Assembly (NCBI GenBank): GCA_042219055.1
Contig: JBDGQN010000070.1
Coordinates: 1 to 59,700 of the forward strand
Direction: 5' to 3'
Source: Salinibacter sp.
GTDB taxonomy: Bacteria > Bacteroidota > Rhodothermia > Rhodothermales > Salinibacteraceae
DNA length: 59,700 nucleotides
The notes below the pieces were generated by a model. That model was not told the DNA's origin. It was given only the letters and a program-made list of their open reading frames with translations, and did no database searches. Both the position numbers and the translations under genes were made by a program. Of this stretch, positions 1 through 59,700 are shown piece by piece (position 1 is the first letter of the stretch; each line of letters starts with the position of its first letter).

Positions 1-558
1 GGCCTGCGTGTAGTCAAAGAGCCAATCCTTCTGCACCAGAGGGGGGGGAGCGCCTTTCCGAGACGTGGTCACACGGCCCTGTTTCACCGAGACGCGGGCG
101 AGGGTTAGGGCGAGCGACCAGCTCGAATCAGACGGAGTGCGTCGCTGGAGGGCGCGGGCCAAGTTCCAGGTGCCCGTTGAATCTCGGTGGAGCGACAGAT
201 GCGGTCGTACGAGCGTGAGAGTTTGCACTGATAACTCGGCGGTCAGGAGGTTGGCCCAGCGGGGCGTGGCGTGGATCGAGTCCACGGACACCACTACCTC
301 TCCCGACGGTGTGCGCACCTGCACGTCGGTGGCCACGAGGTCGTTGATGAAGATGCCTTGGAGGGTCCCGATTGAGAGCGTTCCCGCAAACTGCCGGTTA
401 AAGGCCGTTTCGACTCGTGTTCGGATGCTGTCCCGCCCTACCTGAGTACGAGTAAAGCCTACGAAGAGGATGATTCCCACCAGGATGACGGCAATCCCAA
501 CCTGGAGCGCGCGCCACAGGGGCTGCGACAGGGAACGTTGAGAGGAGGAGGTTGGCAC
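1..558 (-). CDS. TamB/AsmA-like translocation and assembly module protein, N-terminal part (continues beyond left edge)
   Basis: Not in the ORF track. Read by hand from GTG at 558 with no stop to the edge: MPTSSSQRSLSQPLWRALQVGIAVILVGIILFVGFTRTQVGRDSIRTRVETAFNRQFAGTLSIGTLQG... An N-terminal TM anchor followed by an AsmA/TamB-like beta-rich region. Confidence 0.65.
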   Translation of the reverse strand, partial: MPTSSSQRSLSQPLWRALQVGIAVILVGIILFVGFTRTQVGRDSIRTRVETAFNRQFAGTLSIGTLQGIFINDLVATDVQVRTPSGEVVVSVDSIHATPRWANLLTAELSVQTLTLVRPHLSLHRDSTGTWNLARALQRRTPSDSSWSLALTLARVSVKQGRVTTSRKGAPPPLVQKDWLFDYTQA

Positions 559-648
559 AGTGAATCAGCAGCGATGGGGGCGGACGATTGCCCCGTCTCG
601 TTGAAGACGGATGCTAAATCTTTCACACGACTGAAGCGAGACCGCGTT

Positions 649-21802: not shown

Positions 21803-22714
21803 TCAATATTGCCCACCAGAGGGAATCTTTTCAGCGTCCAAGTCTATGCATTCGACCGGGCTGTCGCTGAGGGTCCCACTCGAGTGCTCGGAGTCGTAGA
21901 GACGTGCTGCTGTAGCCGAATCCGCAAGCCGACCATGTGCTTGAACCTGTGGTACACTGGCACCTCCCTCCAGCGCAATTTGCAATCCGGCTTGTCGAAG
22001 CGTATCGATGCTGACTGGTTTAAGACCTGCTTGGTGTGAAACGCAGCGGACGACCTTGTAGACCGCGTCGGCCGTCATGGGCGCCCCGCGGTTCTGATTG
22101 CTCACGGACCGCCAGAGACGGCCCTTCGTGATGCCATACCGGTCTTTGACCCGCTCAATCGCTTCTACGACGGTCTCGGGAATTCGTACGTACCCACTGC
22201 TTTTGGCAATCGGATCGAGATCCAGAATCCAGTAGCCGCCGAGCGGACGCACGTGGTCGACCTCAAGAGACGCGATCTCGCGGCGGCGCAGCGCCCCGTA
22301 CACAATCGTAAGAATCAGCGCCTGGTCGCGGAGCCCGGACCGCGCAGATTCCCCAGCAACCTCAATCATCTTCTCGACGTTGGCTTTCGAAAGAGTGGCA
22401 CTGGAAGACATCTCAGCTTTGGGACGCAACGGTTCGACCTGAGGGTGTCGGGCAGGGTTTCGTGAGACAAAACCGTTCTGAATCAGCCAGTCGAAAAACC
22501 CCCGAAGTGCAGACAGCCGACGCTGTTGCGTCGATAGCGCCTTCCCGTCTCGCGACATCGACCGGATGACGGACTGAATGGCATCCGGGTCAATCCGCTC
22601 AACGTCGGACTCGTCGAGGTCCCTCTTTCCGAAAAATCGCTGTAGATCTGCGTCGTACGCACGGCAGGTCTGGTCGGACGAGATCGTTTCGAGGTACCGG
22701 GATAATAGACTCAT
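21803..22714 (-). CDS. Tyrosine recombinase-like protein with degenerate catalytic motifs
   Basis: SAM-like N-domain (RRLSALRGFFDWL, NPA) and RDQALI...GALRRREI. HxxR is DTLR, LGH is HGR, and the Tyr is retained (ARLY). Confidence 0.85.
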   Translation of the reverse strand: MSLLSRYLETISSDQTCRAYDADLQRFFGKRDLDESDVERIDPDAIQSVIRSMSRDGKALSTQQRRLSALRGFFDWLIQNGFVSRNPARHPQVEPLRPKAEMSSSATLSKANVEKMIEVAGESARSGLRDQALILTIVYGALRRREIASLEVDHVRPLGGYWILDLDPIAKSSGYVRIPETVVEAIERVKDRYGITKGRLWRSVSNQNRGAPMTADAVYKVVRCVSHQAGLKPVSIDTLRQAGLQIALEGGASVPQVQAHGRLADSATAARLYDSEHSSGTLSDSPVECIDLDAEKIPSGGQY

Positions 22715-26767: not shown

Positions 26768-26824
26768 AAGTTTCAAATTTAAATAACAGAAATTCAGGTC
26801 CTGATCCATGACTTCCTCCCCTCG

Positions 26825-27565
26825 ATGAGCTATCTCACGTTCCACCTGATATTTCTAATCCCACCGATCGCAGGACTCCTCCTTACAGTCCGCTCTCCGA
26901 AGCTCACTGATGGGAGTCTGCGAGTTCGCCTGGCTCTGCCTCTGATCTGCCTGATTGCACTGATTTACACGACGCCCTGGGACAACTACCTAGTCGCTCG
27001 TGAAATCTGGTGGTACTCCTCCGCCCGCATCATTGGCACAGTCGGATACGTGCCCATCGAAGAATATCTCTTCTTTCTCCTCCAGCCGCTACTGACCGGA
27101 CTGGTCCTTTACCACTACTTGGGGAGGTTCGGACCCACGCCCCGCTCATCGTCCGAATACGCCCCGTGGGCCGGTGCCTTCTCTTTCCTGGGAATAACCT
27201 TCCTTGGGATCTTCTTCCTTCTCGATGGCCAACCGGAAACCCTGTACTTGGCATTGATCCTGATCTGGGCCCCGCCCATCCTCGCTGGAATGTGGCTCTA
27301 CGATGGGGAAACCCTCTGGTCCCTCCGGGTCCCTGTTACAATTTCGACCACATTGCCCACCGTCTACCTGTGGATTGCTGACGCTGTCGCGATTCAAACG
27401 AATATATGGACAATCTCCCCCAAGCATACGATTGGACTGGCTCCATTGGGCCTTCCCCTTGAAGAGGCCTCCTTTTTCCTTTTTACAAATCTACTCGTCG
27501 TACACGGCATTTTGCTTTTATTGTATGGCTCCCACGAGGCTCTCTCTAGGAAACCTGCTTGTTAG
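26825..27565 (+). CDS. Membrane lycopene cyclase (fused CrtYcd type, two repeats)
   Basis: YTTPWDNYLV...W...PIEEYLFF and a second repeat D.VAI...W...LPLEEASFF. Confidence 0.9.
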   Translation: MSYLTFHLIFLIPPIAGLLLTVRSPKLTDGSLRVRLALPLICLIALIYTTPWDNYLVAREIWWYSSARIIGTVGYVPIEEYLFFLLQPLLTGLVLYHYLGRFGPTPRSSSEYAPWAGAFSFLGITFLGIFFLLDGQPETLYLALILIWAPPILAGMWLYDGETLWSLRVPVTISTTLPTVYLWIADAVAIQTNIWTISPKHTIGLAPLGLPLEEASFFLFTNLLVVHGILLLLYGSHEALSRKPAC

Positions 27566-27827
27566 GAACGGTGACCTCAGTGCCACAGAAAGATTTCTAT
27601 AGGTCATTCTTCAATATATAACCCACGGCTTACATTTTCCGGCGTATTACACCCTGGTCTCACTGGCATTCGTAGCAGACTAAAATTAGATTGCTGAATG
27701 CTTGGTCGGTTGCTCCCAAACAATGGAGGAGCTTTTTGATCGTCGGGGAGCCTCCCCCCTGACTGAGCACTGGACCGGCGGACATACGACTTCACTCACT
27801 CAATCACCCAATCCTCAGGAATTACTC

Positions 27828-28640
27828 ATGCTACAAGATCTACCCACCCTAACACTGGGGCAGTACTCCCTAGTGTACAACATGCTCTCCTTCACCATCG
27901 CGACAATGGCGGCGGCCTTCGTCTTCTTCGTCATGGCCCAGAAGAACTTAGCGCCGAAGTACCGAATTTCGATGATGGTGTCGGCGCTCGTCGTCTTCAT
28001 CGCAGGGTACCACTACTTCCGAATCTTCAATAGCTTTCAAGGAGCATTCGAACTCGCCGGTGGAATGTATAAGCCAACCGGTGACCCCCTTAATGATGCC
28101 TACCGGTACGTGGACTGGCTCCTGACGGTGCCTCTCCTCACCGTCGAGCTTGTCCTGGTCATGGACTTGCCGGAGGGCGAGAGCGGCCCCCTTGCCGCGA
28201 AGCTCGGCTTTGCAGCAGCCCTCATGATTGCCCTTGGATATCCGGGCGAGATGAGCGAAAGCACTGCGCTCTTTGGCGCCCGCGGATTTTGGGGACTCTT
28301 TAGCACACTCCCCTTCATTTACGTCCTGTATAAGCTCTTCTTTGGGCTCGGGGACGTGATTCAGCGGCAGTCAGGCGAAGTGGCAACTTTGCTTGGCAAT
28401 GCGCGTCTGCTCTTGCTGCTGACCTGGGGCTGGTACCCAATCGTGTACATGGTTCCGATGTTCGCAAGCGGGTATCCGGCAAACGCACCGGGCACCCTGG
28501 TCACGCTGCAGGTCGGGTACACGATTGCCGACATCACCGCGAAGGCCGGATACGGTGTGCTCATTTACATGATTGCGAAGCAGAAGTCTGTTGAGGAAGG
28601 CTACGACGTGAATCAGCTGGTTGAGACTGCAACAGCGTAG
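27828..28640 (+). CDS. xop: Xanthorhodopsin (DTE proton pump with carotenoid antenna fenestration)
   Basis: MLQDLPTLTLGQYSLV..., YHYFRI (His62), RYVDWLLTVPLLTVE (D96/T100/E107), RGFWG (Gly156), DITAKAGYG (retinal Lys). Confidence 0.96.
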   Translation: MLQDLPTLTLGQYSLVYNMLSFTIATMAAAFVFFVMAQKNLAPKYRISMMVSALVVFIAGYHYFRIFNSFQGAFELAGGMYKPTGDPLNDAYRYVDWLLTVPLLTVELVLVMDLPEGESGPLAAKLGFAAALMIALGYPGEMSESTALFGARGFWGLFSTLPFIYVLYKLFFGLGDVIQRQSGEVATLLGNARLLLLLTWGWYPIVYMVPMFASGYPANAPGTLVTLQVGYTIADITAKAGYGVLIYMIAKQKSVEEGYDVNQLVETATA

Positions 28641-42328: not shown

Positions 42329-43945
42329 ATGAGCATCGAGCGGTTGACGGATCTCGCTTTCGAGCCCATTGACGACGGGGATCAGTGGACCGAACGGTGT
42401 CTTGCAGCCTTCGAGGGGCTATTCGACGGCCCCGACGACCGATATCACAAGCGCGATTGGGGCACGCGGGTGCAGCCGCGAATCAACGCGGACACCGATA
42501 GTGTGCCGTACGCGGCATTGATTCATCCTGATAATCCCGACTCTGGGCCGTACGGTGGGACGAGCTTCGTCCTGTTTCCGCCGAACGAGACCGAAGAGGA
42601 GGCCGCGGGACCGGGAACGGCACTGTTCGGGCTGGTGGTCGGCACACGTGGGCTGCATCCCGACGAGGAGACGCTCGCTCGGCCGGGGCACGCCCGGAAG
42701 ACCAACGCCATCTGCCAGTGGCTGAACAATGAGTGGGCGGCCGGCGCGCAGGTGGCCTGGGCCAAAGCCGACCCGGTGCGAACGGATCGCAAGATGCCGA
42801 AGCAGGCGCGACGGGTCTTCCAGGGACACGAGGCGACGCTGGAGAAGTACGGAGAGGTCGTCTACGGAGTCGTCCAATCCCCGGACCACTCGGCGCAGGC
42901 CCGGGAGCTCGCCGCAACGGCGCTCACGGCCTTCGTCGATTTGCTGGCCGAAGAGCGCGGGGTCTCGTTTCTAAAAGCGGCCGAGCGTGAGGCGGCGTCC
43001 CTCCGCAACGACTACCTCGCTGAGGTCTTCGAGACACGCGAGCCGGCGGGCGTCTTCGAGCAACTCCAGGATCGGAAGTACGTCATCCTTGAGGGACCGC
43101 CGGGGACGGGCAAGACCCGGCTCGCCGGTCGCCTGCGCGAACGAGAGGAGTGGTACGACGGCCACGGGACGACCATCCAGTTCCATCCGAATACGACCTA
43201 CGAGGATCTCATCGGCGGGCTGGCGCCCGTCTCGGCGCAAGGGCCGGAGGGCCTGCAGTTTGAGCCGACGCCGGGGGCACTGATGCGGGCGGCCGACGAG
43301 GCGGCACGGGTCCATCCCGAGCCGTATCTGCTGCACATCGACGAGATCAACCGCGCCGACCTGGCGACGGTGCTCGGCGAGTCGATATACCTGTTTGAAC
43401 ACCGGCAGTACCGAGCAGGGGAGTCGCAGCGCCGAGTTGCGCTGGCCCACGATTTCACGGAAAAGGTTGCCTCGGGGCTGCTCGACGGGGGGTTCGGGCT
43501 GCCGGAAAACCTCCACGTGCTCGGAACGATGAACACCTCGGACCGGAGCATCGCGCACCTGGACGTTGCCATCCGGCGGCGGTTCGCGTTCCTAAAGATG
43601 TGGCCGCAGCGGGACGCAATCCGGACGTTTCTGGAGGACGTGCCGGAACCGGACCGATCCCGACTCGCGGCCCTGGTGCTCGGCGACGATCACGACGACA
43701 CGCCCCCGGCCAACCTGTACGGGTCGCTGGTTGACCTCTTCGTCGACTACGCCCCCGACGACGCTCTCGACTTGATGCCCGGACACTCGTATTTTCTGGC
43801 CGACTCCCCCGGCGAGCTACACCGGCGGCTGCGCGGAGAATTGCTGCCACTACTCGAGCAGTACATCCGTCAGGGCCACGTGGCAGGGTTCGCAGACGAG
43901 TTGCGGGCGTACATGCAGCGGGTAAACGCGATCGTCAAGGGATAG
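42329..43945 (+). CDS. mcrB: McrB family AAA+ GTPase (type IV restriction) with unrecognised N-terminal domain
   Basis: Walker A GPPGTGKT, QFHPNTTYEDLIGG, Walker B IDEINRA, signature MNTSD, AIRRRF. Confidence 0.92.
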   Translation: MSIERLTDLAFEPIDDGDQWTERCLAAFEGLFDGPDDRYHKRDWGTRVQPRINADTDSVPYAALIHPDNPDSGPYGGTSFVLFPPNETEEEAAGPGTALFGLVVGTRGLHPDEETLARPGHARKTNAICQWLNNEWAAGAQVAWAKADPVRTDRKMPKQARRVFQGHEATLEKYGEVVYGVVQSPDHSAQARELAATALTAFVDLLAEERGVSFLKAAEREAASLRNDYLAEVFETREPAGVFEQLQDRKYVILEGPPGTGKTRLAGRLREREEWYDGHGTTIQFHPNTTYEDLIGGLAPVSAQGPEGLQFEPTPGALMRAADEAARVHPEPYLLHIDEINRADLATVLGESIYLFEHRQYRAGESQRRVALAHDFTEKVASGLLDGGFGLPENLHVLGTMNTSDRSIAHLDVAIRRRFAFLKMWPQRDAIRTFLEDVPEPDRSRLAALVLGDDHDDTPPANLYGSLVDLFVDYAPDDALDLMPGHSYFLADSPGELHRRLRGELLPLLEQYIRQGHVAGFADELRAYMQRVNAIVKG

Positions 43946-44051
43946 ACGCCCGCCACGGTCATCGCTTCAGAGAACACCGTGCCGCCTCCCAGACTCGGTC
44001 CGTGCCGGGGTATCGGCTCGCATCCGCCGTGTCCACCAAACGAATTCCCCC

Positions 44052-45470
44052 ATGCAACGCGTCGATACCCACGACAACCAGAAGGTCTTCCCCCTCCAAG
44101 ACTCGACCACGCACCGGATCGACGCGTCGTTTTTGCTGGGGGCGAATGCAGGGCGGTTTCCCGAAAAGCAGGCCGGGACGTTGGCGGATCAGTTCCTGGA
44201 CACGAATCAGCAGGCGCTCGACGCGTTCGACCTCGACGCGTATCCTCGGTTCGACGGGCGGCGGCTCGACCTGGTCGTCGAGACGAAACGTCGGGTAGGG
44301 GCGATGCCGCTGAAGTCGCCGACGACCGGTGCTCACGACTACGGATTCATCGTGAAGCCGAGGTTCGGGTGGGCGGGCGTCGGGCCGGTGCTGGCCCAGA
44401 CGGGCTGGCGGGTGACGCCGGACATTCTGGAGCTGCCCCAGCTTCCGAAATCGGACCGCGAGATTCCGCCCTGGGTGCTGTCGAGCATCGTATTGCCGAA
44501 GGTCCGGGCGCTGCTACGGAATATGGATCGCGACTTTGAGGTGGTGGACCGGGACCTGCGGGCGCCGCGGGGACGGGTAGACTGGCAGGCTTACGCCACC
44601 CGGAGGATCGGTCGGGGACGGATGCTCGAGGTGCCATGTCGATTCCCCGATTTGCAGGACGATCGCGACCTGTTGTCGGCCATCCACTACACGCTGAAGC
44701 GCCACCGCGGATCTCTGCAGACCCAGCGGCACGCCGGTCCGTTCGTGGAACGGCTCCTGGCGCTGTGTCAGCAGCTGCTCCGCGGCGTGCGTCACGTGGC
44801 GCCGGAGCGTCCGTCGGACCGGCAGATCGACCGGTGGAGGACCCGCGGGTTTGGGGGCGACGCCCACGAGGAGGGCATCCGGGCGATCCGGTGGACGGCC
44901 GACGAGCGCGGGCTGGCAGGGCTCGGCGAGCTACAGGGACTGCCCTGGGCGCTTGCAATGGAGTCGTTTTTCGAGGCCTGGGTCGAGCATCTTGCCGACC
45001 GCATCGCTCGGGTCACCGGCGGCACCGTCCGAACCGGCCGCGAACGCGAGACCGTCGTGCCGCTGCAGTGGGAGCCGAGGCTCGCCGGCTCGCAGCGGTC
45101 GCTCATCCCGGACGTCGTCATCGAGCGGGCGGACGCGACGATGATCCTCGACGCCAAGTACAAGCGTCACTTCGAGGAGCTTGAGCGCCGCTCCTGGCCC
45201 GCCATCGCCGACCACGTCCGCGACACTCACCGCCAGGATCTCCTGCAGGTGCTCGCCTACGCAAGCACCGCCGAGCACCAGCGGGTGACCACCTGCCTCG
45301 TGTATCCGTGCCGCGAGGGGACCTGGGCGTCGCTGAGGGACCGCTCACGCGTTTTCCATCGGGCAGAGCTTGGAGTGGGCGAGCGTCAGATCGAACTGGT
45401 ACTGGCGGCGGCCCCGATCGGGGGAGATTCGGAGGGCGTCGTGGAGGCCCTAGCGGACGCAATGCGGTAG
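44052..45470 (+). CDS. mcrC: McrC family PD-(D/E)xK nuclease subunit
   Basis: RGRVDW, MESFFEAWV, IPDVV, ILDAKYK, DLLQVLAYA; directly follows mcrB. Confidence 0.9.
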   Translation: MQRVDTHDNQKVFPLQDSTTHRIDASFLLGANAGRFPEKQAGTLADQFLDTNQQALDAFDLDAYPRFDGRRLDLVVETKRRVGAMPLKSPTTGAHDYGFIVKPRFGWAGVGPVLAQTGWRVTPDILELPQLPKSDREIPPWVLSSIVLPKVRALLRNMDRDFEVVDRDLRAPRGRVDWQAYATRRIGRGRMLEVPCRFPDLQDDRDLLSAIHYTLKRHRGSLQTQRHAGPFVERLLALCQQLLRGVRHVAPERPSDRQIDRWRTRGFGGDAHEEGIRAIRWTADERGLAGLGELQGLPWALAMESFFEAWVEHLADRIARVTGGTVRTGRERETVVPLQWEPRLAGSQRSLIPDVVIERADATMILDAKYKRHFEELERRSWPAIADHVRDTHRQDLLQVLAYASTAEHQRVTTCLVYPCREGTWASLRDRSRVFHRAELGVGERQIELVLAAAPIGGDSEGVVEALADAMR

Positions 45471-45815: not shown

Positions 45816-45832
45816 GTAGGCCCGGGGGGACT
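45816..45832 (-). other. att site: displaced tRNA 3'-end fragment (T loop to discriminator)
   Basis: Minus strand AGT-CCCCC-CGGGCCT-A-C fits T-loop end, T stem, acceptor 3' strand and discriminator; lies 157 bp upstream of an integrase. Confidence 0.65.
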
Positions 45833-45933
45833 AGAGAATGGGTGAACTGAGAGTGCGACTAGCCTGAAAAACGGCCCTCAGCGGCGCTGAGAGGGGATTC
45901 TTCATGGAACTCGCAGGTGCAGTTCAGGGAACA

Positions 45934-45975
45934 ATTGCACCCAATATTGCACCCAAACCTCCATGCTGCACCCAA
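45934..45975 (+). repeat. Integrase arm-type binding repeats (3 x TGCACCCAA)
   Basis: ATTGCACCCAA at 45934 and 45946 and TGCACCCAA at 45967, between the att core and the integrase start. Confidence 0.65.
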
Positions 45976-45988
45976 CCACCGCTCCCCG

Positions 45989-47251
45989 ATGGCAACACTC
46001 TCTTTTCGGTGTCGTGAAGACCGCACCAACGACGACGGACTCGCTCCCGTCGATCTTCGCATCTCTCACAAGAGCGAGCGCCGCTTTCTTTCGACCGAAA
46101 TTCGCGTCGATCCAGACAAGTGGAGAGACGGGAGCGTCACCCGCTCCCACCGCCAAGCGGCCGAGATTAACGCTGGCCTTCGACGCATCGAGTCCACTGC
46201 CCAAGACGCCCTCACGTCGCTTCAAACATCCGGTGCAAGAGTAACGGCGGAGCGGATTAAAGAAGCTGTCCAGGAGGCACTCGATCCGGAATCGGATGAG
46301 CGTGTTGGATTCGCGGATTTTTGCGAGGACCGAATCCAGAAGATGTACGACAACGGATCAACTCGAAAGAACCACATGACGGCCGTCACGAAGTTGAGGG
46401 AATTTCTCCACGACAGGCGCGGTGTCGATGATGTCCCCCTATCTCCCTACTACGTGACTGCGTCGTTGCTTGAAGAGATGCAGACGTGGGAGTCGGAGGT
46501 GCGCGGGAACGCGACGAACACGATTCACAAGACCATGCGTACGCTCCGACGGATGATCAACGTCGCCATTCGGGATGACTTGTTTCCAAGAAGTGAGTAT
46601 CCGTTTGACGACCTCACGCTGAGTAGGGAACGCACGGGCAAAACCCCTCTCACCTCCGACCAGGTCCAATCCCTGGAATCGCTAATGGAAAAAATCGACG
46701 ATGGGGAGGCTCGCTTTTCTCCCGATGGACTGCCTGCTCATGGCCTACGTGCCTTCCTGTTCTCGGTTTACATGTTGGGAATGCGTTGGTCGGACGTGTC
46801 GAGCCTGGAGTGGTCTCAGATCCGCGATGGGCGCGTCCAGTACCAGATGCGGAAAACCGGCGCGCAGAAAGACCTAAAGCTTGTTCCCCCAGCCAAGGAG
46901 ATCTTAAACTGGTACGATGATCGGCGCGGCGAGCGATTCGTTTTTCCCCTGCTGGAGCGATACGCCCACAAACATGACCTTTCGGAGGACGAGGGGCTTC
47001 GTGGTGCGATCGAGGACATGAACCGCCGCATAAACCAGGAACTGAAGAAGATCGATAAGGCGGCCGGGCTTGGGCTCGGGCTGACGACGCACATGGCCCG
47101 GCATACCTCTGCTCAACGCATGATGGAGCAGGGTTGGAGCCTGCAGGAGATTCAATCGGCGCTCGCTCACAAGTCAATCTCCACGACCGAGCACTACCTT
47201 CGGACCGTACGCGACGAGGAACTGGACGAGAAACACGAAGACCTATGGTGA
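45989..47251 (+). CDS. Site-specific tyrosine integrase with arm-binding and SAM-like domains (Bacteroidota/Rhodothermota type)
   Basis: N-terminal GLAPVDLRISHK arm domain; FLFSVYMLGMRWSDV, MRKTG, HMARHT, LAH, TEHY. Confidence 0.94.
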   Translation: MATLSFRCREDRTNDDGLAPVDLRISHKSERRFLSTEIRVDPDKWRDGSVTRSHRQAAEINAGLRRIESTAQDALTSLQTSGARVTAERIKEAVQEALDPESDERVGFADFCEDRIQKMYDNGSTRKNHMTAVTKLREFLHDRRGVDDVPLSPYYVTASLLEEMQTWESEVRGNATNTIHKTMRTLRRMINVAIRDDLFPRSEYPFDDLTLSRERTGKTPLTSDQVQSLESLMEKIDDGEARFSPDGLPAHGLRAFLFSVYMLGMRWSDVSSLEWSQIRDGRVQYQMRKTGAQKDLKLVPPAKEILNWYDDRRGERFVFPLLERYAHKHDLSEDEGLRGAIEDMNRRINQELKKIDKAAGLGLGLTTHMARHTSAQRMMEQGWSLQEIQSALAHKSISTTEHYLRTVRDEELDEKHEDLW

Positions 47252-47587: not shown

Positions 47588-50077
47588 TCACTCAGGCCAA
47601 TCCACCTCCAGTTCTGTGGGCACGCCCAGTTCATCGGCCTTGTGGGCGACCGCTCGTTGCAGGCTGTTGATCTGCTTCTTCGGCGAGGCTTTGGAGCTCA
47701 CCCGGATGGTGAAACCATCTCCTTGATAGAGCCAGATCTTGAAGCGCGTGGAGGCTTCCCTCGCCTTCTCCTTCCTAGCTTCGTCAAAGGCCGCCCCGAC
47801 GATCTCCGTCTCATAAGAGGCGTTGATGTAGCTCATAAGTCCTCTCCACCGGTTCTCTTTGTGCTTGGTCTCATCCCACTTTCCGAGCGGGATGAAACGG
47901 CCAGTGGCATCCTCAAGGCCCCCGCGATCATTGATGATGTCGCGCAGTGTCTCTCGGGTCTCCAAGAGCTCCGAAACGAGAGGATGCGAGCCAAGCGGCC
48001 GAAGCGGCTCGTGCGAATCGGGGTACGATCCGCCATTGGCTTCATAATCGACCGCAATGTTGTGAAGCACCCGTGCCCACTCCATGCCGTACGGGACGCT
48101 ATAGAGGCGCTTGACGGCATTCCTCAGCGCTTCAATGTTGCTGAGCACCTCGGTGTCGCAGGCACGGGCGAGCTCCATCCAGAGGTCTCCTTCGGCAAGA
48201 AGATCGGTGTCATTTTCGAGGTTTGCCTGGAGATACCGGTCCAGCTGAGGCGTCTCAATGCCGTGGTCTCGCACCGTCGGCACGTAGGAGGTGAGGTGAG
48301 CTTTCGTGAGGTCCAGTTCCCAATCCTTCCCCTCGACATAGAGACTTTTCCGGACCTCCGTTTTGACATTCATAAGCTGATTCCAACGGTCCGCCCGGAG
48401 CCGCGGGGATCGGTCGCATGCGGCGTACAGCGGCTTCGGAAATTCGCGGAGACCGAAAAGCTTCCGGAGTTCCTGAATGCGGCGTTGCTCGTCGGGGATC
48501 TGCTCCACAACCTCGGCCATCCCGTCCAACTTGCCGTCTGCGAAGACTCCGTGCTGGCCGTGGCTGAAGACGTTGACGGGGTCGAGTTCGTTGAGGTAGT
48601 TCTTCATCATCAAGGCCGTCTCCGGCGCATCGACAACCGGCTCATTGTTATCGACAAGTCGTCTCCGTTTCTTGCGCTCCGGCCCCAGGGCACGACGGCT
48701 ATTGGCCTTGTTGCCACTCAGCATGAACTTCCGATCCGGCTGTTCCTCTGGGCTGAGCATAAACTCGTGGGCGGCCTCGGTGATCGACTTCGGGATTGAG
48801 TGGGATAAAACAACACGGCCTCGGTTGACTCGATGGTCCCAGCCGCTGACCATGAAATCACTGTCAACGTACTTCTGGTAGAGTTCCAACAGCATGCCGG
48901 AGTTAAGCCCCCGGTTGTAGCCCGACTGCGGGCGGTAGCCGAAGGCCGGGAAGACGATTTCGCTTGTGATTGGCATTCCGGTACAGTCCTGTTCCGGGCT
49001 TGCATTATCGTCTCGCTTGCTCGTGGTGAGGATCAGCTGCAGAATTGCCATGAGTGGAGTGGCCTCTGTCAGGACCGGGCGCCATTGCACGATTCGATGA
49101 TAGAGGTCCGTCGGAATCGGCTTATCGGGCACACAATCAAGTGGAGACCGACCCAACAATTCGTACTCCACGGACAAGTCAAGGTGCTCCAACTGCCGTC
49201 GATCCCTCGACTCGGCCCCGGAAATTCCACGCCGCGTACACGAGATTCCACCCCGCGTACATCCGGTGACCTCGACGATATTCGGGCCAAAACTGCCTCT
49301 ATAGCTGTTGAAGCGGGATCGAGGCGGGGAGGCGAAGAGGTAGCCGGAACCTAAAATGTTAGGCTCATTGCGGGGCTGCCGCGTCGCGGTCGGCGCGGTT
49401 GGCGTCGTCGCGGGGACGGCTGGGCGGGGTTCGGTGGCTGCCGCGGGGCTGCTTTGCTCGGTTCCGGCGTCAAAAAAAAGAGCTTCCAGTTTCTCGACAC
49501 TTCCGGTTTCAATCAGCCACTCCGTAGCATCAGCGACTTCTTGAGCATCGAGCTCTCTGATTCCCAGGTTGATTAGCCTCTCGATTACGACATCAAGGAT
49601 GACTTCGGTGCCACTAGACTTCCAACCTTCAAAAGTCCGCCTACTACGCTGCTCTATGACGAGGAGCCCTCCAACTGACGGTACGTTTGTTAGTGGTGGT
49701 AACTCGTCAAGGACCTCATCAGGAACGTACTGCTTGATGGTGTCGACATAAGAGACCACAGAAGTGCTGACCTCACATTCATCGTCCTCCCCAAGATAGT
49801 TGGATCCCTCCTCGTTCGGATCAGTCAGCAGATCAGGGTCAACCTTCTCGACTACCGCCTCCTCGGCATTGTGCTCGATGCAACTACAGACGAGTTGCAC
49901 GTAGGCATGAGAGTCGACAGGTGCCTCCTCCCAGATGAGGCTCAGCAGATTGACTGGCCCCATCCCTTCGATGCGCTGCTGAAACTCCCGGCGCTCGGAA
50001 ACGGAAAGTTCAGATGAAGAGGTGCCTGTAGCGACTGGATCTTCTCCAGCCGCATTCGTAAAATACGATGCGGGCAA
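47588..50077 (-). CDS. Divergent family A DNA polymerase-like protein (putative replicase of the element)
   Basis: Ordered PolA motifs SPRL...NQLMNV...VRKSL, ELDLTKAHL (A), RNAVKRLYSVPYG (B), DATGR, SYINASYETEIV, LYQGDGF (C). Start codon uncertain. Confidence 0.7.
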   Translation of the reverse strand: MPASYFTNAAGEDPVATGTSSSELSVSERREFQQRIEGMGPVNLLSLIWEEAPVDSHAYVQLVCSCIEHNAEEAVVEKVDPDLLTDPNEEGSNYLGEDDECEVSTSVVSYVDTIKQYVPDEVLDELPPLTNVPSVGGLLVIEQRSRRTFEGWKSSGTEVILDVVIERLINLGIRELDAQEVADATEWLIETGSVEKLEALFFDAGTEQSSPAAATEPRPAVPATTPTAPTATRQPRNEPNILGSGYLFASPPRSRFNSYRGSFGPNIVEVTGCTRGGISCTRRGISGAESRDRRQLEHLDLSVEYELLGRSPLDCVPDKPIPTDLYHRIVQWRPVLTEATPLMAILQLILTTSKRDDNASPEQDCTGMPITSEIVFPAFGYRPQSGYNRGLNSGMLLELYQKYVDSDFMVSGWDHRVNRGRVVLSHSIPKSITEAAHEFMLSPEEQPDRKFMLSGNKANSRRALGPERKKRRRLVDNNEPVVDAPETALMMKNYLNELDPVNVFSHGQHGVFADGKLDGMAEVVEQIPDEQRRIQELRKLFGLREFPKPLYAACDRSPRLRADRWNQLMNVKTEVRKSLYVEGKDWELDLTKAHLTSYVPTVRDHGIETPQLDRYLQANLENDTDLLAEGDLWMELARACDTEVLSNIEALRNAVKRLYSVPYGMEWARVLHNIAVDYEANGGSYPDSHEPLRPLGSHPLVSELLETRETLRDIINDRGGLEDATGRFIPLGKWDETKHKENRWRGLMSYINASYETEIVGAAFDEARKEKAREASTRFKIWLYQGDGFTIRVSSKASPKKQINSLQRAVAHKADELGVPTELEVDWPE

Positions 50078-51597: not shown

Positions 51598-52113
51598 GAT
51601 TTTGAGGTATGAAAAGGACTCCGTTGTCCTGTAGCCACATGCTTCGGATCCGAAGGAGCCATCATGGCACCTTTCGCCCCCCAGGCAGAATTTTACGTCG
51701 GGGGTCACCCTCTCTCGTCACAACCGGACCGTCGTTTCGACCTCATGGGGGTGTAAATGAGCCACCCCTTTCAAGGTCTCGGGGAAATTGACGGGAAGAA
51801 TCTACTTTCGGCCCTCGCGCCGGGGACGCAGGCGGTCCCCGGCTGGGGTTTCGTCGGTCCCTTCGGGACGAAAAACCTGCGTCTCCGGAGGAGACCGCCG
51901 AAGAAATAGCCTGGAACCGGGAGCGAAGCGGACGTTCCAGGCGAATGTAAGGTCAAAGTTCATCACACCTTGAAAGGGGCGGTGTAAATGAGCCTAAACC
52001 GAGTCTCTCCCGAACTCATCACGGCCCCGATGAATTCAGGCGGATCATCTTCCCCCGCCCCACTCGGTTGGGAAAACCACATCGCACCCTCTATCTCCAG
52101 TCCCTTCACAAGC

Positions 52114-52446
52114 ATGGCCTACTGCCCCCACTGCAATCGACGCTACGACGAGACCAACGAGACGCAGCCCTGCTGCGGCACCTGCGGACACCCCATCTCC
52201 TGCGGCTGCGGCGGCGGGCACCTGCACGCGTCCAGTTCGTCCTCCGTACCGTCCTCCCTCCGACACGAGTTCAAGGAAGACTTCGTCGTCGACGAGGAGG
52301 AGCCGGAGGAGGCGGACGGCTCGGGTGCAGCAACCGATTCAGACTCGACACCAAACACCAACGAGGCCGACAGTATCGACGACGGAGCCAATGAGACCGA
52401 CGATGATTACATGGCACCCCTCGCTTTGCGTCCCAAAACCTACTGA
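52114..52446 (+). CDS. Small Cys-rich zinc-ribbon protein with acidic tail
   Basis: MAYCPHC...CCGTCGHPISCGC followed by a D/E-rich disordered tail. Confidence 0.7.
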   Translation: MAYCPHCNRRYDETNETQPCCGTCGHPISCGCGGGHLHASSSSSVPSSLRHEFKEDFVVDEEEPEEADGSGAATDSDSTPNTNEADSIDDGANETDDDYMAPLALRPKTY

Positions 52447-52653: not shown

Positions 52654-54609
52654 TCACGAGAAGTTAATCCAACCTGCCTCGTCAAGAATCGTCCCAAGAG
52701 TTTCCGGAAACGCCTCCAGACTGTTCTCTCTGGGCCGCAGGAGAACAAACCCAACCGCATAGCCGGACGAAGGACGGTGGACATGCGTCCGAGGGCCTGC
52801 ATGTAAGTCCGGCGACATTCCCCACGCCGCGTCGACAATCTCCTTCGACTTGCCATCCGCTCCCTCCTCGACGAAGCTCCGTAGTGCTCGCTTGTAGTCG
52901 TACTTGTCTTCCACCGGCCGGTCCCCATCCGTCATCGCGGGGCGCGGCGAACGAAGAGTTGGATCGAGTGTGATGATACGAGGGGTCGTTCCCGATGCCA
53001 CCTTCCCCTCCGAAGAGACCTTGTGCCATTCGAGGGCAATGTCCGGACACCGTTTGTTTCCCGTATAGTCGGTGTAATCGAGTCCCCGGCGTTCCAGCCC
53101 GTACGGGCGGTCTGTATCAAAATACCCGTTTTCGCTCCGCAAGGGCTGGTACTGTCTTTCGTACCAGACTTCCAGTAGTCGACCGGGACGAGAGGGATGT
53201 GTCATGCGGGCGTTCACCTTGTCCGGAACTGGATTTTGGTAGAACGGGGTCACGTGCCGCCCTTTCTCGTCGACGAACTCGAAGCCCACCTCTCGCAGAG
53301 CCCGAATCGTGTGTATAAAGCACCAATGCTCATACGCCTTATTGAACGCTTGCACCTCGAACGGGATGGAATCTTCCGACGCATCCACAAAGTCCATGAG
53401 CGCATCGAGAAGGTCCGTCAGGCGTCGGAGGCGGCTGTACCGCCCGTCGTAGTACGTGACTGCCGACCGGTCCTCAAATCGATGTGTGGCTTCTTCTGGC
53501 GAGTACGGGAGCGCGCCTGCATAGCGCCTCAATGCCTCTTCGTACTCGTTCAATTTGCCCAAAGCCGCCTCATGTTTGTCCAAGCGGAGCTGCTTCTTCT
53601 CTTTTACCAGATGGTCCCGGACCCGCTCTACGCAGTTTCGCACTCGACGCACAGACTCGGCCACGAACCGATTCGCGCTCGTCTCTACCGTGGAGGTGGC
53701 CTTGGAGGTGGTAAACTCCGTGGGGACCCGGCCGGCAGCAGTATCGACAACCTCATGCACCTGCTGCAATGGAGGATGAGGACTGTGGTGCTGGAAGTAC
53801 TCTTCGGCCTGCCGCAGATTCAACGCCACGTGCTCGGTGTCAATGGACAGGGCCGTGTCCGGATCGCGAATAATCTGGCATAGCGTATCCCGGTACCGGG
53901 GAAGGATGCCCTCCAGACGCTTAAACAGCTCCAGTCCTGGCGTTTCTTCCTGTCGCTGCTTCATTTCCTGATAGTCCACGAATCGCTCCATCGGCGACGC
54001 CAAGTTTCCACGCACGGTTCGCCGGGATAGGTCTGAGAGAACGCCCTCATAAAGCTCCCGATAATCCTCGTCGCCGTACCCGAGCGCGATCCGCGTGGAG
54101 AGGATGCTCCCGTCCGGTCGTCGCACTGGCGTCGGAATCCACTCCTCCGTGTCCTCGTCAAATTGGCGCTGGTAGAGCGTGATCTGTGCCTGAGCAGCAC
54201 ACCAGTAGTTCGTTCGAATTCGCTTTACGTCTTCATTGGTCTCCTCAGAACCGGTAGCCCATCGTACCCACTCGCCCTGCAGCGCCCGATTTTGAAGCTC
54301 AATGCTGAGCTCTTCGTCCCACGGATCTGACGGAGTTCCAAGGTAGACTAGCAGAGGATCTCGTGAGGCTTCTTGTGTCCATGCCTCGAATGCGAGCTGG
54401 CGAGTATCTTCGAGGATGGGCCGTGTGCGCTCCGGATCCTTGTCGTCAAAGGCAAACCATTCTCGCTCTCCCGTATCGAAGTACTGTCCGCGCCGAGTGT
54501 CGTATACGTACCGACGAAGGCCAAGTGCAATCGGGCCAATCTCGGTCTCGACGACGGCCTCCTTCCGGGAGACTGAAGAAACAGAATCTTCGTCCATCTT
54601 CTCGACCAC
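52654..54609 (-). CDS. DUF2357 / PD-(D/E)xK McrC-like nuclease partner
   Basis: T.ETSANRFV, YEHWCFI, CPDIALE, IITLDPTLR at the LDAKYR position; directly downstream of a McrB-like GTPase. Confidence 0.78.
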   Translation of the reverse strand: MVEKMDEDSVSSVSRKEAVVETEIGPIALGLRRYVYDTRRGQYFDTGEREWFAFDDKDPERTRPILEDTRQLAFEAWTQEASRDPLLVYLGTPSDPWDEELSIELQNRALQGEWVRWATGSEETNEDVKRIRTNYWCAAQAQITLYQRQFDEDTEEWIPTPVRRPDGSILSTRIALGYGDEDYRELYEGVLSDLSRRTVRGNLASPMERFVDYQEMKQRQEETPGLELFKRLEGILPRYRDTLCQIIRDPDTALSIDTEHVALNLRQAEEYFQHHSPHPPLQQVHEVVDTAAGRVPTEFTTSKATSTVETSANRFVAESVRRVRNCVERVRDHLVKEKKQLRLDKHEAALGKLNEYEEALRRYAGALPYSPEEATHRFEDRSAVTYYDGRYSRLRRLTDLLDALMDFVDASEDSIPFEVQAFNKAYEHWCFIHTIRALREVGFEFVDEKGRHVTPFYQNPVPDKVNARMTHPSRPGRLLEVWYERQYQPLRSENGYFDTDRPYGLERRGLDYTDYTGNKRCPDIALEWHKVSSEGKVASGTTPRIITLDPTLRSPRPAMTDGDRPVEDKYDYKRALRSFVEEGADGKSKEIVDAAWGMSPDLHAGPRTHVHRPSSGYAVGFVLLRPRENSLEAFPETLGTILDEAGWINFS

Positions 54610-54676
54610 GATTGGTTTGCATCAGCGAAATCCGCCGCCCTCGGTGCTCTTCCGAAACCGTGCCTATCGTTTTCAA

Positions 54677-57600
54677 TCAGAGCGCCGCCTGTCCCGGCAG
54701 TCCCTGCTGCACCCGGCGGAGCAGGCGGTCGACCTCGTCGTACTCCCGAAGCTTGTCGCTCTTCTGGAGCCGCTTTCGATATCGCCCCTCAGGGTCGTTG
54801 ATTGCGTATGCGCCCGGTAGCTTCGAAAGGAAAAAGCTAACGAGCACGTCTCCCATGACAGTGCTCGTCTCCTTACTGACATCTGGATGCTGAGAGGCAT
54901 ACTGATACGCTTGCTCAATCGACCGATAGGCAAGCGGGGCTTGGCCCGCCCGAGCGAGCTGGCTCAACTCGTCCAAAATGTCCAGAAAGGCGTCGTGGAA
55001 CGCTGCTGGAACGCCGAATTCATCCTTGAACTGCTTGGCTGCTCGTCGCAGCGAGTCGTTTTCGGGACTCACGGGAATGTACGTAGCCCGATCCAGCACC
55101 TTCGGACTGAGCGTCTTCGTCGTGGCATCGGTGTTGATCGTCGCAAACAGCTTCAGATTGGCCGTGAGGTCGACTTCAAATGCACTTTCCCCCGACGTAT
55201 CCTGCCCGAGATGAAGACGCCGATTTGGCGATCCCTCGGGAGCTTCCATTTTCGACAGAATGTTGGCGAGGTACTGTTCCGGCTGGGCAATGTTGAATTC
55301 GTCGAGACACGCCAAAAAGAGGCGGGCGTGCTCTGTCCCGGGGCCTGCAAGGGCCTTGAAGTATTGCGACTCTGCCTTGATCAAAAACTTCAGAAAGGAG
55401 GTGTACTTGTACTCTCCCGTAATCGCACTTTCGCTTCCGAGGAGGCTGTCGGGTGAGAACCAGGACGGGGAAACCGGCTCCAGAAGATGGAAGTGCTCCC
55501 ATCCATCTTCACCGAGATCCCGGTTAAAGAATTCTGCCAGAAGGCGTACGAGCGAGGTTTTCCCGCATCCTGGGGGGCCGGCTAAAACCACCAGTCCACT
55601 TGCCTTACCCGCGCAGTGCATCCAGGCTCGGCGCAGCACTTTTTCTGGATAGATGAATCCTCGCTCCTCAACAAAATTACGGAAGGCCGACAGACTGGTG
55701 TCGAGCTCGCCTGTTGCCAGGTGTGAGAGTGGATGTTCGGTGCGCTCCTCCACCTTCTGCTCAATCTGCTTCTTGAGCTCATCATCCGAGAATGCCCCAT
55801 CTTCTTTTGATTGTAGGCTCGCAACGAGGGGATTGAGCGTTTCTCTGATCTCTCGAACAGCGTCTGCGAGATCACCACCGTTCTCACTCCCGTCCTCCTC
55901 GATACGCTCAATCCGCTCACTCATCTGCTCGACGGCCTTTCGCATCGCGTCATTCGATTTCCGAATAGGGGCCACAGTGTCCTGCACCATTTGCTGCATC
56001 CACTGGGTCATTCCGACGGCCCAGTGTCCGTCTTCGTGTGCCTCAGTAGGGAGACCAGAGGATTCTCCAGTTCCGCTTCTGTCATCTGAGGAAGTGGTCG
56101 ATGTTTCGTCCACGGCTTGATCGTGATCTTCAGTAGAGAATGTCGTGTCGTCGTCTGCGGCTTCGTCCGCCGATGCACTTTCTCCTTCGTCTGCGTGAGT
56201 CCGGGCTTCGATCTCTTCGAAGGAGGCATTTCCCTCTTCCTCCAGTGCGGCATGAAGCTCCTGCTGGAATTCTGCGATGCCGTCTTCCGAGCGCTCGATC
56301 CTGTCCCGGACTACGTCGAGTTCCCGCCGCAGCGTGGCAGAGGCGGGCACTGGTTCTCCCGCATGCGCACGGAGCGCCTCGGCGAAGGCACCCACCACGT
56401 CATCTTTTCCCTCTTCTTGTTGAAACGCATACATGTGCGCCCCACGGAGTATTCGGAAAAGTCCGCTCATAGCGGGACGGTACCCAATGTCCCTGTGGGC
56501 CCGAAGGACTCCTTCGACCGCCTCCTCACAATTCATGGGGGCATCCGGAAGATGCTTTTGGAGCGCCTCCGATGGCGCTACGCGACGAGAGTGCAGGCTA
56601 AACACTTCCAGATCGGGCCGACACGGAAGATCGTGACCGGGCGCGTAGAGGGCGACAGCCGTGTTGTTCATGCCGAGGTCAATACAAATGTGTGCCGCCT
56701 CCTCATCTTGCAAATCCGGACGGAGGGACACTGACACGTACCCGTCCTCCTCGGCATCCAGCGTTCGACGATAGTCACGATGGGGTTGCACATTCCAGAG
56801 AAAGGGCTTCACTCGGAGCCGATCCGGGCGCAGTTCGGCGTGGGCGGTAAATCGAATCAGCTTTTTCCGCTCATCATCTGGCGGGGCCTCGTCTTCATTT
56901 CGCTGCTGAAACCGACGGTCCGGCTCGTCGCCGTAGTCATTGACATCTGCCCGCAGGTACACCTCCGCCTCCTGCAGTGATGGCTGCCCCGGCGTCAGCG
57001 TCAAGTCCTCAAATCGGTCGTACCCGCCGGGCTCAAGTCGAACCGTATCCCGTTCCTCCAACTCATCGACGGCACAGAGCAGAAATTCCTCCTCACGCTG
57101 AGGCTCTCCGCGCTCACTTTCGGTTCGTTCAAACGAGTACGGCGTCCCGTCGGGAGTGCGAACGAGGGCGTAAATTTCCTCCCCCTCTTCGAGAATGCGT
57201 TCGCGCTCTTCTTCGGCGATCGAGGAGACCTGTCCGAGGACAGCAAGACTGCTATTCGGCACTCCTTTCTCCGCCGCCAAACGCCGGCGGGGACGGACAC
57301 AGGCATTCGCCTCCCCGTCGTTCCCGAGTAGGTCCAGCCGATCCAAGTCCATGCGAATGAGGTCCTCCAATCCAGGAAGCCCGGTCGAGCCGCCAGCCAG
57401 GAAGATGTTCTCGATCTTCTCAAACTCTAGCAGTTGTCCGTGCTCTCGGGCAAGCCGCTGTACTCGGCCAAGGAATCCTCGGAATCCCGGACCCAGCGGC
57501 TGATTTTCGTCTTGCCATATTTCACGAAGGACCCGTCCGAGCAGGGCTTCATCGATTTGAAACGTGCCTTCCTCCTCCTCATCGATCTCAATCTGGACGG

Positions 57601-58507
57601 CCTCCCGCCGCCCGGTACAGATTGCGATTTTCGCCTCCTCAATGCGTTCCAGATAGGGCATCCATTTCTTACTCCGTCGAGGAACTCGATCACGTCCTAG
57701 AAGCTTCTTCAAGACGTACTGGTCGAAATACGCCCCGGCACAGCCAATGCTCGTACAGATCGGATAAAGGCGAAAATCACTCTCCTGCCGATTCACCTGA
57801 ACGACCGCGACGTCGGTCGTGCTTCCCCCCATGTCGAAGACGAGAAAGGTCTCGCCCGCCTGCGTTTCTCCCGGTTCTACGCCGTGCTCCAGCAGCGAAT
57901 AGTAGTAGTACACGCCGTACGGCTCATAGAGAAAGTCCGTCCCGCCGACCTGGAAAGAGACGTTCTCGTACTCATTCTCCTGTATTACCGAGTCGACGAT
58001 TCGCCGGATGTTTTCGCGGTATCGGCGCGACTTTTTCTTTCCCCTCGTCCCATCTCCCTCGTATTCGTAGTTGGGCGCCGTGAAGTGGATCTGAAGGGAT
58101 TTCTCGTTCCCAAACAGGTCTCGGGCTCGCTCAACCGCCCGCTTGCAGACCTTCGACAGGAAAATCGCTGCGGCCTGATGGGGATTGAAGTATTCTTTCT
58201 TCCCACTACTGCTTTGCCCTACGATTTCATTGAGCCGGGTATAGTCCCCCGTCTTTGTCCGCATGGACCAGACTTCCTCATCCGGCGTTTCTGCCTGGGC
58301 TTTGGTGAGGCTCAGGTCGGCCTTGAAGTGCCGGTAATAGTTGGAGGCGGTCTCTGCCTTCTCAGAGGAGGCGAGCACAAAGTCGCTCGGGTCGGGCGAC
58401 TGGGAATTGAACGACTCCGTCGTCCGGTAAATCGCCGTCGGCAACAGCAGGTCGCCGCCGAATCGCAAAAGCGCGAGTTTTTGCGTGGGACCGTTGGTCC
58501 GACTCAT
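54677..58507 (-). CDS. Hsp70-like ATPase - acidic/coiled-coil linker - McrB-like (NxD) AAA+ GTPase fusion
   Basis: Hsp70 motifs FDMGGSTTDV, GAYFD, LAGGSTGLPGL and IDLGMNNTAVA; AAA+ motifs GPPGCGKT, VSPSW...LLG, LDEFNIA, INTDATT, SPKVLDRA. Confidence 0.85.
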   Translation of the reverse strand: MSRTNGPTQKLALLRFGGDLLLPTAIYRTTESFNSQSPDPSDFVLASSEKAETASNYYRHFKADLSLTKAQAETPDEEVWSMRTKTGDYTRLNEIVGQSSSGKKEYFNPHQAAAIFLSKVCKRAVERARDLFGNEKSLQIHFTAPNYEYEGDGTRGKKKSRRYRENIRRIVDSVIQENEYENVSFQVGGTDFLYEPYGVYYYYSLLEHGVEPGETQAGETFLVFDMGGSTTDVAVVQVNRQESDFRLYPICTSIGCAGAYFDQYVLKKLLGRDRVPRRSKKWMPYLERIEEAKIAICTGRREAVQIEIDEEEEGTFQIDEALLGRVLREIWQDENQPLGPGFRGFLGRVQRLAREHGQLLEFEKIENIFLAGGSTGLPGLEDLIRMDLDRLDLLGNDGEANACVRPRRRLAAEKGVPNSSLAVLGQVSSIAEEERERILEEGEEIYALVRTPDGTPYSFERTESERGEPQREEEFLLCAVDELEERDTVRLEPGGYDRFEDLTLTPGQPSLQEAEVYLRADVNDYGDEPDRRFQQRNEDEAPPDDERKKLIRFTAHAELRPDRLRVKPFLWNVQPHRDYRRTLDAEEDGYVSVSLRPDLQDEEAAHICIDLGMNNTAVALYAPGHDLPCRPDLEVFSLHSRRVAPSEALQKHLPDAPMNCEEAVEGVLRAHRDIGYRPAMSGLFRILRGAHMYAFQQEEGKDDVVGAFAEALRAHAGEPVPASATLRRELDVVRDRIERSEDGIAEFQQELHAALEEEGNASFEEIEARTHADEGESASADEAADDDTTFSTEDHDQAVDETSTTSSDDRSGTGESSGLPTEAHEDGHWAVGMTQWMQQMVQDTVAPIRKSNDAMRKAVEQMSERIERIEEDGSENGGDLADAVREIRETLNPLVASLQSKEDGAFSDDELKKQIEQKVEERTEHPLSHLATGELDTSLSAFRNFVEERGFIYPEKVLRRAWMHCAGKASGLVVLAGPPGCGKTSLVRLLAEFFNRDLGEDGWEHFHLLEPVSPSWFSPDSLLGSESAITGEYKYTSFLKFLIKAESQYFKALAGPGTEHARLFLACLDEFNIAQPEQYLANILSKMEAPEGSPNRRLHLGQDTSGESAFEVDLTANLKLFATINTDATTKTLSPKVLDRATYIPVSPENDSLRRAAKQFKDEFGVPAAFHDAFLDILDELSQLARAGQAPLAYRSIEQAYQYASQHPDVSKETSTVMGDVLVSFFLSKLPGAYAINDPEGRYRKRLQKSDKLREYDEVDRLLRRVQQGLPGQAAL

Positions 58508-58579
58508 AGCGCGTGAAATCGAAAATCGCGAATGGTGAAGTGTCAAAACGCCCTGCGAAGGCGTAACCAGTTCTGATTG

Positions 58580-59700
58580 CTATTGGAGATGTCCGGTCTC
58601 GTGGAGCGAGAGGTCGTTCTCCTCTACGGTAACGAGAGCGGGGACCACATCAGTCACCTGATCGGGGGGCTCTGTGTTGTTGTACCCGCTCGTCGACGCA
58701 AATCCCTCCGTGCGGGGCCGAGGAAGAAGAACGGTCACCTTCTCGACTTCCACGACCCAGTGCGTCGCGTCGGACGGCGCGGCCCGAGCGTATTTGTCCT
58801 CATTATGAGTTGCCCAGTGGCTCACGGACACCGACGAGGAGAGCCGGTTTTCCAAAAACCACTCGAACCGGCCGCCCACCGGGCGCAGATCATCTTCTTC
58901 CCGGCACCAGTCTGTAAATGCCGTTCCACAGCGGTCGAGAATTCGACGGTCCCGTTCAGAGATGGACGGCTCGGAATCGCCCTGATGATCGTCCTGCGTC
59001 TCCGAACTCGTTGCAGAGGATTCCTCCAATGTGTCTTCTTCGGTATCAGATGTTCCTTTGCTCTCCGTAGGTTCATCCTCCACCGACGAGCGAACGTCCC
59101 CCGACTCTTCGCCCTGCTGTTCCTCGCCCTGCTCTTCCGACATCGAAGTCGCGGTTCGGAGCCCCTCGGCCGCGATTGGGGTCTGAATCTCAGGGTCTCC
59201 CTCATCGCGATTCGTCTGTTCCGCCTGGTCGGCTGTCGTCGATTCGGTCGTGCTCGTCTCACTCTCCTCAGAGGCTTCACCGCTCTCCTCTTCCTTTCCG
59301 TCCATGTGAGGCGGCGTCCCGGCCTCCTCGCGTCGGGCATCCAGGTACCACCCGAGTCCCCGAACGAGCACATAACCGGCCCCAAATGTAAACAAGATAA
59401 ACAACAGAACATCCCAAAAAATGCCGAGTCGATCGGCCCAGGACAGGCCAACGCCGGGGCCGCCTGCCGATGACGTTTCCGACGACACTTTCGACGACGT
59501 GGACGGCGCTGATGTCTCCTTCTTTTTCGGGGTCGACGCTGTAGCGTCATCTTCCGACCACTTCTTCGCCCGGGCAATCAACTGTTTGGCCTGGTTTTTC
59601 CAAGCGGGGTGACTCTCCACCACACGCACAGCAGTTCTATCTTCAAGCGTGTAGTATCTCGGATAGTCAGTATCACCGTCCAAGGCTCGACTGCAGTACA
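58580..59700 (-). CDS. Single-pass membrane protein with acidic linker and small C-terminal domain (5' end beyond window)
   Basis: Frame open to the right edge; TM IFWDVLLFILFTFGAGYVLV; E/S/T-rich linker; C-terminal WVVEV...LLPRP...VPALVTV; ends 72 bp upstream of the Hsp70-McrB gene. Confidence 0.75.
   Translation of the reverse strand, partial: YCSRALDGDTDYPRYYTLEDRTAVRVVESHPAWKNQAKQLIARAKKWSEDDATASTPKKKETSAPSTSSKVSSETSSAGGPGVGLSWADRLGIFWDVLLFILFTFGAGYVLVRGLGWYLDARREEAGTPPHMDGKEEESGEASEESETSTTESTTADQAEQTNRDEGDPEIQTPIAAEGLRTATSMSEEQGEEQQGEESGDVRSSVEDEPTESKGTSDTEEDTLEESSATSSETQDDHQGDSEPSISERDRRILDRCGTAFTDWCREEDDLRPVGGRFEWFLENRLSSSVSVSHWATHNEDKYARAAPSDATHWVVEVEKVTVLLPRPRTEGFASTSGYNNTEPPDQVTDVVPALVTVEENDLSLHETGHLQ

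Follow-up and report, generated by a model that had tools for sequence, protein, structure and literature searches.

Our analysis indicates that an Hsp70-McrB fusion gene and the McrC homolog behind it form a conserved two-gene unit, and that the Hsp70 domain of the fusion, judged by the order of its sequence motifs, is circularly permuted: the phosphate-1 hairpin lies at the far end of the domain, behind the beta domain. On balance, we favor the reading that this NxD McrBC is a type IV restriction system likely directed against phages. Its permuted Hsp70 head, predicted to be locked in the docked state, would be the sensor turning on a McrC that is likely an active DNase. What is read directly from sequence comprises the domain order, the relocated phosphate-1 hairpin, the invariant ATP-site residues, the change of Thr11 to Met, the gene pair and its defense neighbors.

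The window, the whole stretch of DNA that was analyzed, is 59,700 nt long and corresponds to the entire contig JBDGQN010000070.1 (C327). Judged by its housekeeping genes, the host probably belongs to halophilic, Rhodothermales-like bacteria. Salt lake metagenome is the label of one run holding the sequence, and the listed holders include no RNA run. Three co-oriented ORFs close the contig end, separated by gaps of 72 and 79 bp, which agrees with the arrangement given in the preliminary description:

52654..54597, minus strand: McrC homolog, 647 aa (ORF, DUF2357 match, Foldseek)
54677..58507, minus strand: Hsp70-McrB fusion gene (P0004), 1276 aa, ATG at 58507 (ORF reading and homolog searches)
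58580..59700, minus strand: 5'-truncated single-pass membrane ORF, a neighbor outside the conserved unit

The conserved unit comprises two genes, not three. The McrC homolog lies directly after the fusion gene in all 8 readable loci (of which L001 and L002 are near-identical), whereas a profile of the C-terminal domain of the membrane protein, searched against 4526 frames from 158 loci, found it in 0 of the 6 family loci with upstream DNA. As the membrane gene is missing from these relatives, the neighborhood recurs as a pair. A single hydrophobic stretch (19-residue hydropathy 2.0 at residue 97) is present in the upstream ORF, in keeping with the single-pass protein first described, but this ORF is truncated, since the window is the entire contig, and it is not conserved with the pair. 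A related-strain contig extends beyond the window end, where the membrane frame stays open for ten more codons; sequencing reads gave no link from the contig end to another contig, and ESM Atlas returned nothing usable for this ORF. The membrane C-terminal domain is present in two other genomes of 300, in both of which the gene sits inside an operon of MotB/ZorB-like, lipoprotein, tubulin-like, large Hsp70-fold, membrane and MotA/ZorA-like genes, and no McrB was found near these operons in the stretches read. Parts of the same operon are located on other contigs of the own genome (C335:7153-11411 and C37:2-1786). The preliminary description had proposed a three-gene cluster, possibly triggered by a protein or membrane signal; the membrane protein would then pass such a signal, for instance injection stress, on to the Hsp70 head. 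The ORF is indeed adjacent and co-oriented, and in its usual operon the membrane gene comes after a large Hsp70/actin-fold gene, a kind of fold that its cytoplasmic domain could bind. Given its absence from all six relatives and the other operon of its homologs, we regard a membrane trigger as very improbable.

The six-gene operon itself was located at L152:4417-16001 (G011:C4) and at L157/L158 (G053:C1), where it adjoins type I R-M-like genes. Its large protein has about 1215 aa and an Hsp70/actin-fold C-terminal half, and the gene is carried by 5 of 58 family genomes. The operon was likened to Zorya by its motor genes, and no paper on it was found. A derivation of the beta domain of the fusion from this large protein was not supported, as no match was obtained.

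The fusion protein is composed of the following parts:

57212..58486, minus strand: Hsp70 nucleotide-binding domain (NBD) body, residues 8-432 (structure model and profile comparison)
56708..57190, minus strand: all-beta domain, about residues 440-600, likely SBD-beta-like (structure only: strands in the model, Sse1 match)
56588..56701, minus strand: relocated phosphate-1 hairpin, residues 603-640, with D610-x-G612-M613 (profile, complex model, motif order)
55703..56587, minus strand: variable linker, comprising a helical insert, a low-complexity acidic segment and, ahead of the GTPase, a likely amphipathic helical portion (alignment)
54680..55690, minus strand: McrB-type AAA+ GTPase domain with the NxD motif (Pfam/PADLOC, alignment, tree)

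The Pfam HSP70 family matches the protein weakly (E 1.2e-4), and a confident AlphaFold model of residues 1-679 (pLDDT 85.7, pTM 0.88) structurally matches Hsp70s; the GTPase carries Walker A (977-984), Walker B (1068-1070) and N1125-T-D1127, the last invariant in 31/31 aligned rows. The fusion of an Hsp70 to an NxD McrB is therefore confirmed, as is the proposal that Hsp70 stands in place of the usual reader, since the N-terminal 640 residues model as Hsp70. The NBD body begins at the strand equivalent to Hsp70 beta-3, without beta-1 and beta-2, and carries K62, E195, D225-MGGSTT-D232, E290, K293 and G372-G373. The all-beta domain is likely SBD-beta-like as judged from the model: Sse1 (3d2e_A) aligned over 430 residues (7..588 to 20..538, rmsd 8.5), and a sequence profile of the domain gave no match to the DnaK SBD. 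The helical insert of the linker is found in 12 of the 31 aligned rows. In ESM Atlas, the head falls in generic Hsp70 clusters.

An Hsp70 chain opens with the phosphate-1 hairpin, and the phosphate-1 residue of the host DnaK is accordingly D8, at the N-terminus. In the fusion family, 48 of 49 sequences show the order phosphate-2, adenosine motif, beta domain and then phosphate-1 (about residue 610), and the remaining one is a 574-aa fragment. The set contains some near-duplicates, and it may miss distant or non-permuted relatives. The N-terminus of the aligned family has no phosphate-1 motif. Profile comparison with 30 DnaKs aligned fusion residues 78-429 with DnaK 85-372 and, as a separate segment, 606-625 with DnaK 4-23 (this segment by itself has a P of about 1e-5). 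Consistent with this, the solved chains that match best align from their residues 19-47 onward, where the model is at residues 7-9, so that their first hairpin is skipped, and 49 of the 50 listed matches end before model residue 605. When a hairpin profile was searched against 16,849 frames of the own genome, the N-terminus of the host DnaK ranked only third among the non-self matches (E 1.4), which is weak taken singly, and an NCBIfam scan of three short hairpin-region segments, two of them with rough coordinates, gave no match. The PF00012 side matches L103-L106 were set aside as other Hsp70-like genes with the canonical order.

Modeling of residues 1-596 and 600-642 as separate chains with ATP/Mg gave a complex score of 0.89 (best control 0.00), with a contact agreement of at least 91% and a partner pLDDT of at least 83 across runs; the score mark was reached by 116 of 157 solved pairs and 2 of 215 mismatched pairs. 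In the model, residues 607-609 contact 139-142, residues 615-619 contact 13-14 and 22-24, and further contacts include K62, E195, 227-230 and 373. The hairpin is thus predicted to dock into the canonical lobe-I slot and to complete lobe I. The two pieces are parts of one known fold, so the result may stem from likeness to solved Hsp70 structures, and the complex model supports the placement without proving it. Another explanation would be that residues 603-640 remain from a second Hsp70 domain that has decayed, the first domain being incomplete and inactive. Permuted domain order usually arises by duplication and trimming, and models can lean toward known Hsp70 structures, both of which suit such a remnant. 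However, D610, G612 and M613 are invariant in 45/45 aligned sequences, and their partner residues in the body are likewise retained: K62 in 43/45, E195, D225 and T230 in 44/45 (the remainder being gaps in each case), and E290, K293 and G372-G373 in all rows apart from gaps. The missing N-terminal motif, the modeling of 1-679 as one unit and the canonical contacts of the complex also speak against decay, and we give this explanation very little credence. A circularly permuted Hsp70 is apparently unreported: the literature searches found no earlier report, and permutation is not mentioned in the main text of PMC11090510, although its figure supplements may show the order.

A permuted head is expected to differ from a chaperone in its dynamics. 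The beta domain is tied to lobe I at both ends, so undocking should be blocked, and an ATP-like docked lock is predicted. Because the beta domain joins the last NBD helix to beta-1, DnaK-style undocking would not occur, and the head may bind ATP without a chaperone cycle. The position of DnaK Thr11 is Met in 45/45 sequences; the corresponding threonine of Hsc70 (Thr13) couples ATP binding to conformational change. Foldseek ranked ATP-state and AMPylated BiP first for the head, with HSP110 also among the top matches. The rmsd was about 12 for docked-state BiP chains and about 21-22 for several ADP or post-hydrolysis chains, a coarse contrast, as some ADP-state or nucleotide-free chains were also near 12 (6eof, 4fl9). 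On this reading, the head would be an ATP-bound, non-cycling receptor.

The McrC homolog consists of an N-terminal beta domain, DUF2357 (210-362, E 7e-7) and a PD-(D/E)xK-fold domain, and the best Foldseek matches of its model are the McrC chains 6hz4_M, 6ut6_G and 6ut7_G. Together with the invariant NxD, this upholds the downstream DUF2357/McrC-like gene and the kinship with type IV restriction suggested at the outset. No Hsp70 domain was found on this protein by domain scan, model or Foldseek. Its nuclease domain contains P518-D519, D545-P-T, K565 and Y568, and the PD, the DP, K565 and Y568 are kept in 21/21 McrC sequences, in homologs ranging down to 22% identity. In 20 of the 21, D-P-T replaces the canonical (D/E)xK; the canonical lysine is gone, and the invariant K565 sits on the next helix. 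As the PD, the D and a relocated invariant lysine are kept, the nuclease site is likely rearranged and putatively active rather than dead, and migration of a catalytic lysine has precedent (PMC551604). L004, L005, L018 and L020 form a sister group of NxD McrBs without Hsp70, and the McrC of L018 also has the PD, DP, K and Y, suggesting that the rearranged site is likely older than the Hsp70 fusion.

The neighbors of the pair make a defense role likely. PglZ and BrxL (BREX genes) lie beside it in L002, DrmD-like (DISARM-like), type IIG and DruE-like (Druantia-like) genes in L003, and a type I R-M system in L017; an integrase is near the pair in L014, and L013, L014 and L015 have no clear defense neighbors among the genes scanned. 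Such embedding could also mean that McrC is catalytically dead and that the pair is a scaffold or motor working with the neighboring BREX, DISARM-like or type I R-M systems. The loss of the canonical (D/E)xK would fit, and within the NxD clade McrC folds are often inactive (PMC11090510). However, the invariance of the PD, D545, K565 and Y568 in such distant homologs argues against a dead enzyme, and the pair is also found without such neighbors (in the window, L013 and L015), which makes a scaffold or motor an unlikely reading.

In the mechanism that we favor, the head would be held in the ATP-like docked state, binding ATP without cycling. McrBC has a GTPase ring that holds one McrC, and by analogy six heads may sit on the ring of the fusion. 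A triggered head would switch on McrC, DNA would be cut with D519, D545 and the relocated K565, and this cutting may be a back-up to neighboring methylation-based systems. A protein trigger is possible, and the foremost candidate, still somewhat short of probable, is a protein or peptide of phage origin to which the beta domain would bind; RNA ranks behind it as a rather doubtful trigger. In its most specific form, put forward tentatively, our proposal is that a permuted Hsp70 with its beta domain stapled to lobe I at both ends recognizes a phage protein as a fixed ATP-state receptor and controls a McrBC nuclease whose catalytic lysine has moved as well.

The same module could also have a head that binds RNA or ribosomes and steers it to viral RNA or transcribed DNA. 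Bell et al. argue for an RNA or ribosome role of related Hsp70 domains, and they favor RNA binding with very slow hydrolysis for them (PMC11090510). The loss of Thr11 throughout the family fits ATP binding without a chaperone cycle as well. However, neither protein yielded a HEPN, cold-shock or YTH domain, nor did the scanned neighbors, and McrC keeps its conserved acidic residues, so we consider RNA recognition rather unlikely next to the protein receptor proposed above.

By architecture, the module is a member of a named but uncharacterized McrBC group. Bell et al. (2024; PMC11090510) describe an Hsp70 NBD/SBD joined to McrB as typical of the deepest NxD group, with QOZ24013.1 as representative, and the preprint agrees; no member of this clade has been characterized according to the same article. 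The Hsp70-McrB fusion is therefore not new, and the suggestion of an undescribed subtype does not hold. The NxD motif, the adjacent DUF2357 McrC and the Hsp70 NBD/SBD fusion of that group are all present here, the SBD by structure only, whereas the main text mentions no permutation. In a quick midpoint-rooted tree, built without a true NxxD outgroup, 43 Hsp70-fused rows and the truncated L001 formed one GTPase branch (SH-aLRT 94).

Type III CoCoNuT (CnuD/CnuCD) likewise combines an NxD McrB, a DUF2357 McrC and an Hsp70-like domain. However, its Hsp70 is on McrC or encoded by a separate cnuD gene with HEAT repeats, HEPN, Vsr or PLD nucleases accompany it together with the CnuH helicase, and its McrC is inactive or lost. 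In the present case, Hsp70 is on McrB in a two-gene unit, and no HEPN, Vsr or PLD nuclease or CnuH helicase was found among the neighbors scanned, in a window cut upstream. The placement of Hsp70 supports the early view that this is not CoCoNuT proper. McrBC of E. coli and T. gammatolerans shares the AAA+ GTPase and the McrC fold, but has NxxD, a modified-base reader on McrB and PD-(D/E)xK, in place of NxD, Hsp70 and PD...DPT...K. DnaK/BiP and Hsp110 (Sse1) share the fold and the ATP-site equivalents of host DnaK D8, K70 and the NEP, DLGGGTFD, ExAK and GG motifs; they differ in their N-terminal phosphate-1, which corresponds here to beta-1/beta-2 behind the beta domain, and in Thr11, and the fusion head has no conserved lid and is joined to a GTPase. 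A PADLOC check gave a partial answer: PDC-M26A, from the candidate system PDC-M26, matches fusion residues 835-1112 (E 7e-29), limited to the linker end and the GTPase, and McrC had no PADLOC match. No paper on PDC-M26 was found.

In Hsp70s, allostery relies on a substrate domain that docks on the ATPase domain and leaves it again. Where the topology of a natural family is predicted to bar undocking and the ATP-site residues are kept, that family offers a test of a one-state Hsp70. The published view of defense-linked Hsp70 domains is refined, as the phosphate-1 loop is there but relocated. For phage biology, the pair offers a compact two-gene handle on the uncharacterized NxD McrB clade, and on ways in which signals besides modified bases could direct a restriction motor.

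Homolog searches found 35 full-architecture proteins, and six more were added by profile. The family occurs in 0 of 57 genomes of the same taxonomic family, in 0 of 300 genomes of the class, and in 1 of 401 genomes of the phylum of G390, namely G390 itself; no member was found in the viral contigs and plasmids searched. P0033, an 895-aa member ending after Walker A, is likely a broken copy, its cluster mate P0071 having 1144 aa. An Rfam scan of 39000-59700 gave no match, and promoter and terminator scans gave chance-level results only.

The gene pair was first described as cargo on an integrative element, and two features support the presence of an integrated element:

45816..45832, minus strand: 17 bp matching the 3' end of tRNA-Lys(CTT), the likely core of the attachment site (comparison with related genomes)
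45917..47251, plus strand: tyrosine integrase of the element (domain scan)

The integrase and the tRNA-Lys remnant suggest that the cluster is probably carried within an element; the far end of the element is missing from the assembly, so the status of the cluster as cargo is presumed. ARAGORN found an intact tRNA-Lys at 5 of 8 stretches from related genomes and listed none in the own assembly, which is 71% complete; G040 has the same tRNA remnant beside integrase-like DNA, without McrB. Just outside the attachment site lies a second, canonical-type McrB (AAA_5) and McrC (PF10117) pair (42329-45470, plus strand), which G029 lacks at the corresponding position. The tRNA-Lys site resembles a defense hotspot.

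Within the element, an 829-aa ORF (47588-50077, minus strand) without Pfam, NCBIfam or PADLOC match adjoins a likely excisionase and is possibly the replication protein of the element. A non-coding stretch (51762-51982 and 52113-52221) is repeated on at least six other contigs, has very high depth in metagenome contigs and no Rfam match, and is followed by a small Cys-rich ORF common to the G040 element. Elsewhere in the window, there are two tandem tyrosine recombinase genes (20498-22714, minus strand), and genes for a carotenoid-type oxidoreductase, a lycopene cyclase and a microbial rhodopsin stand in a row (25247-28640, plus strand).
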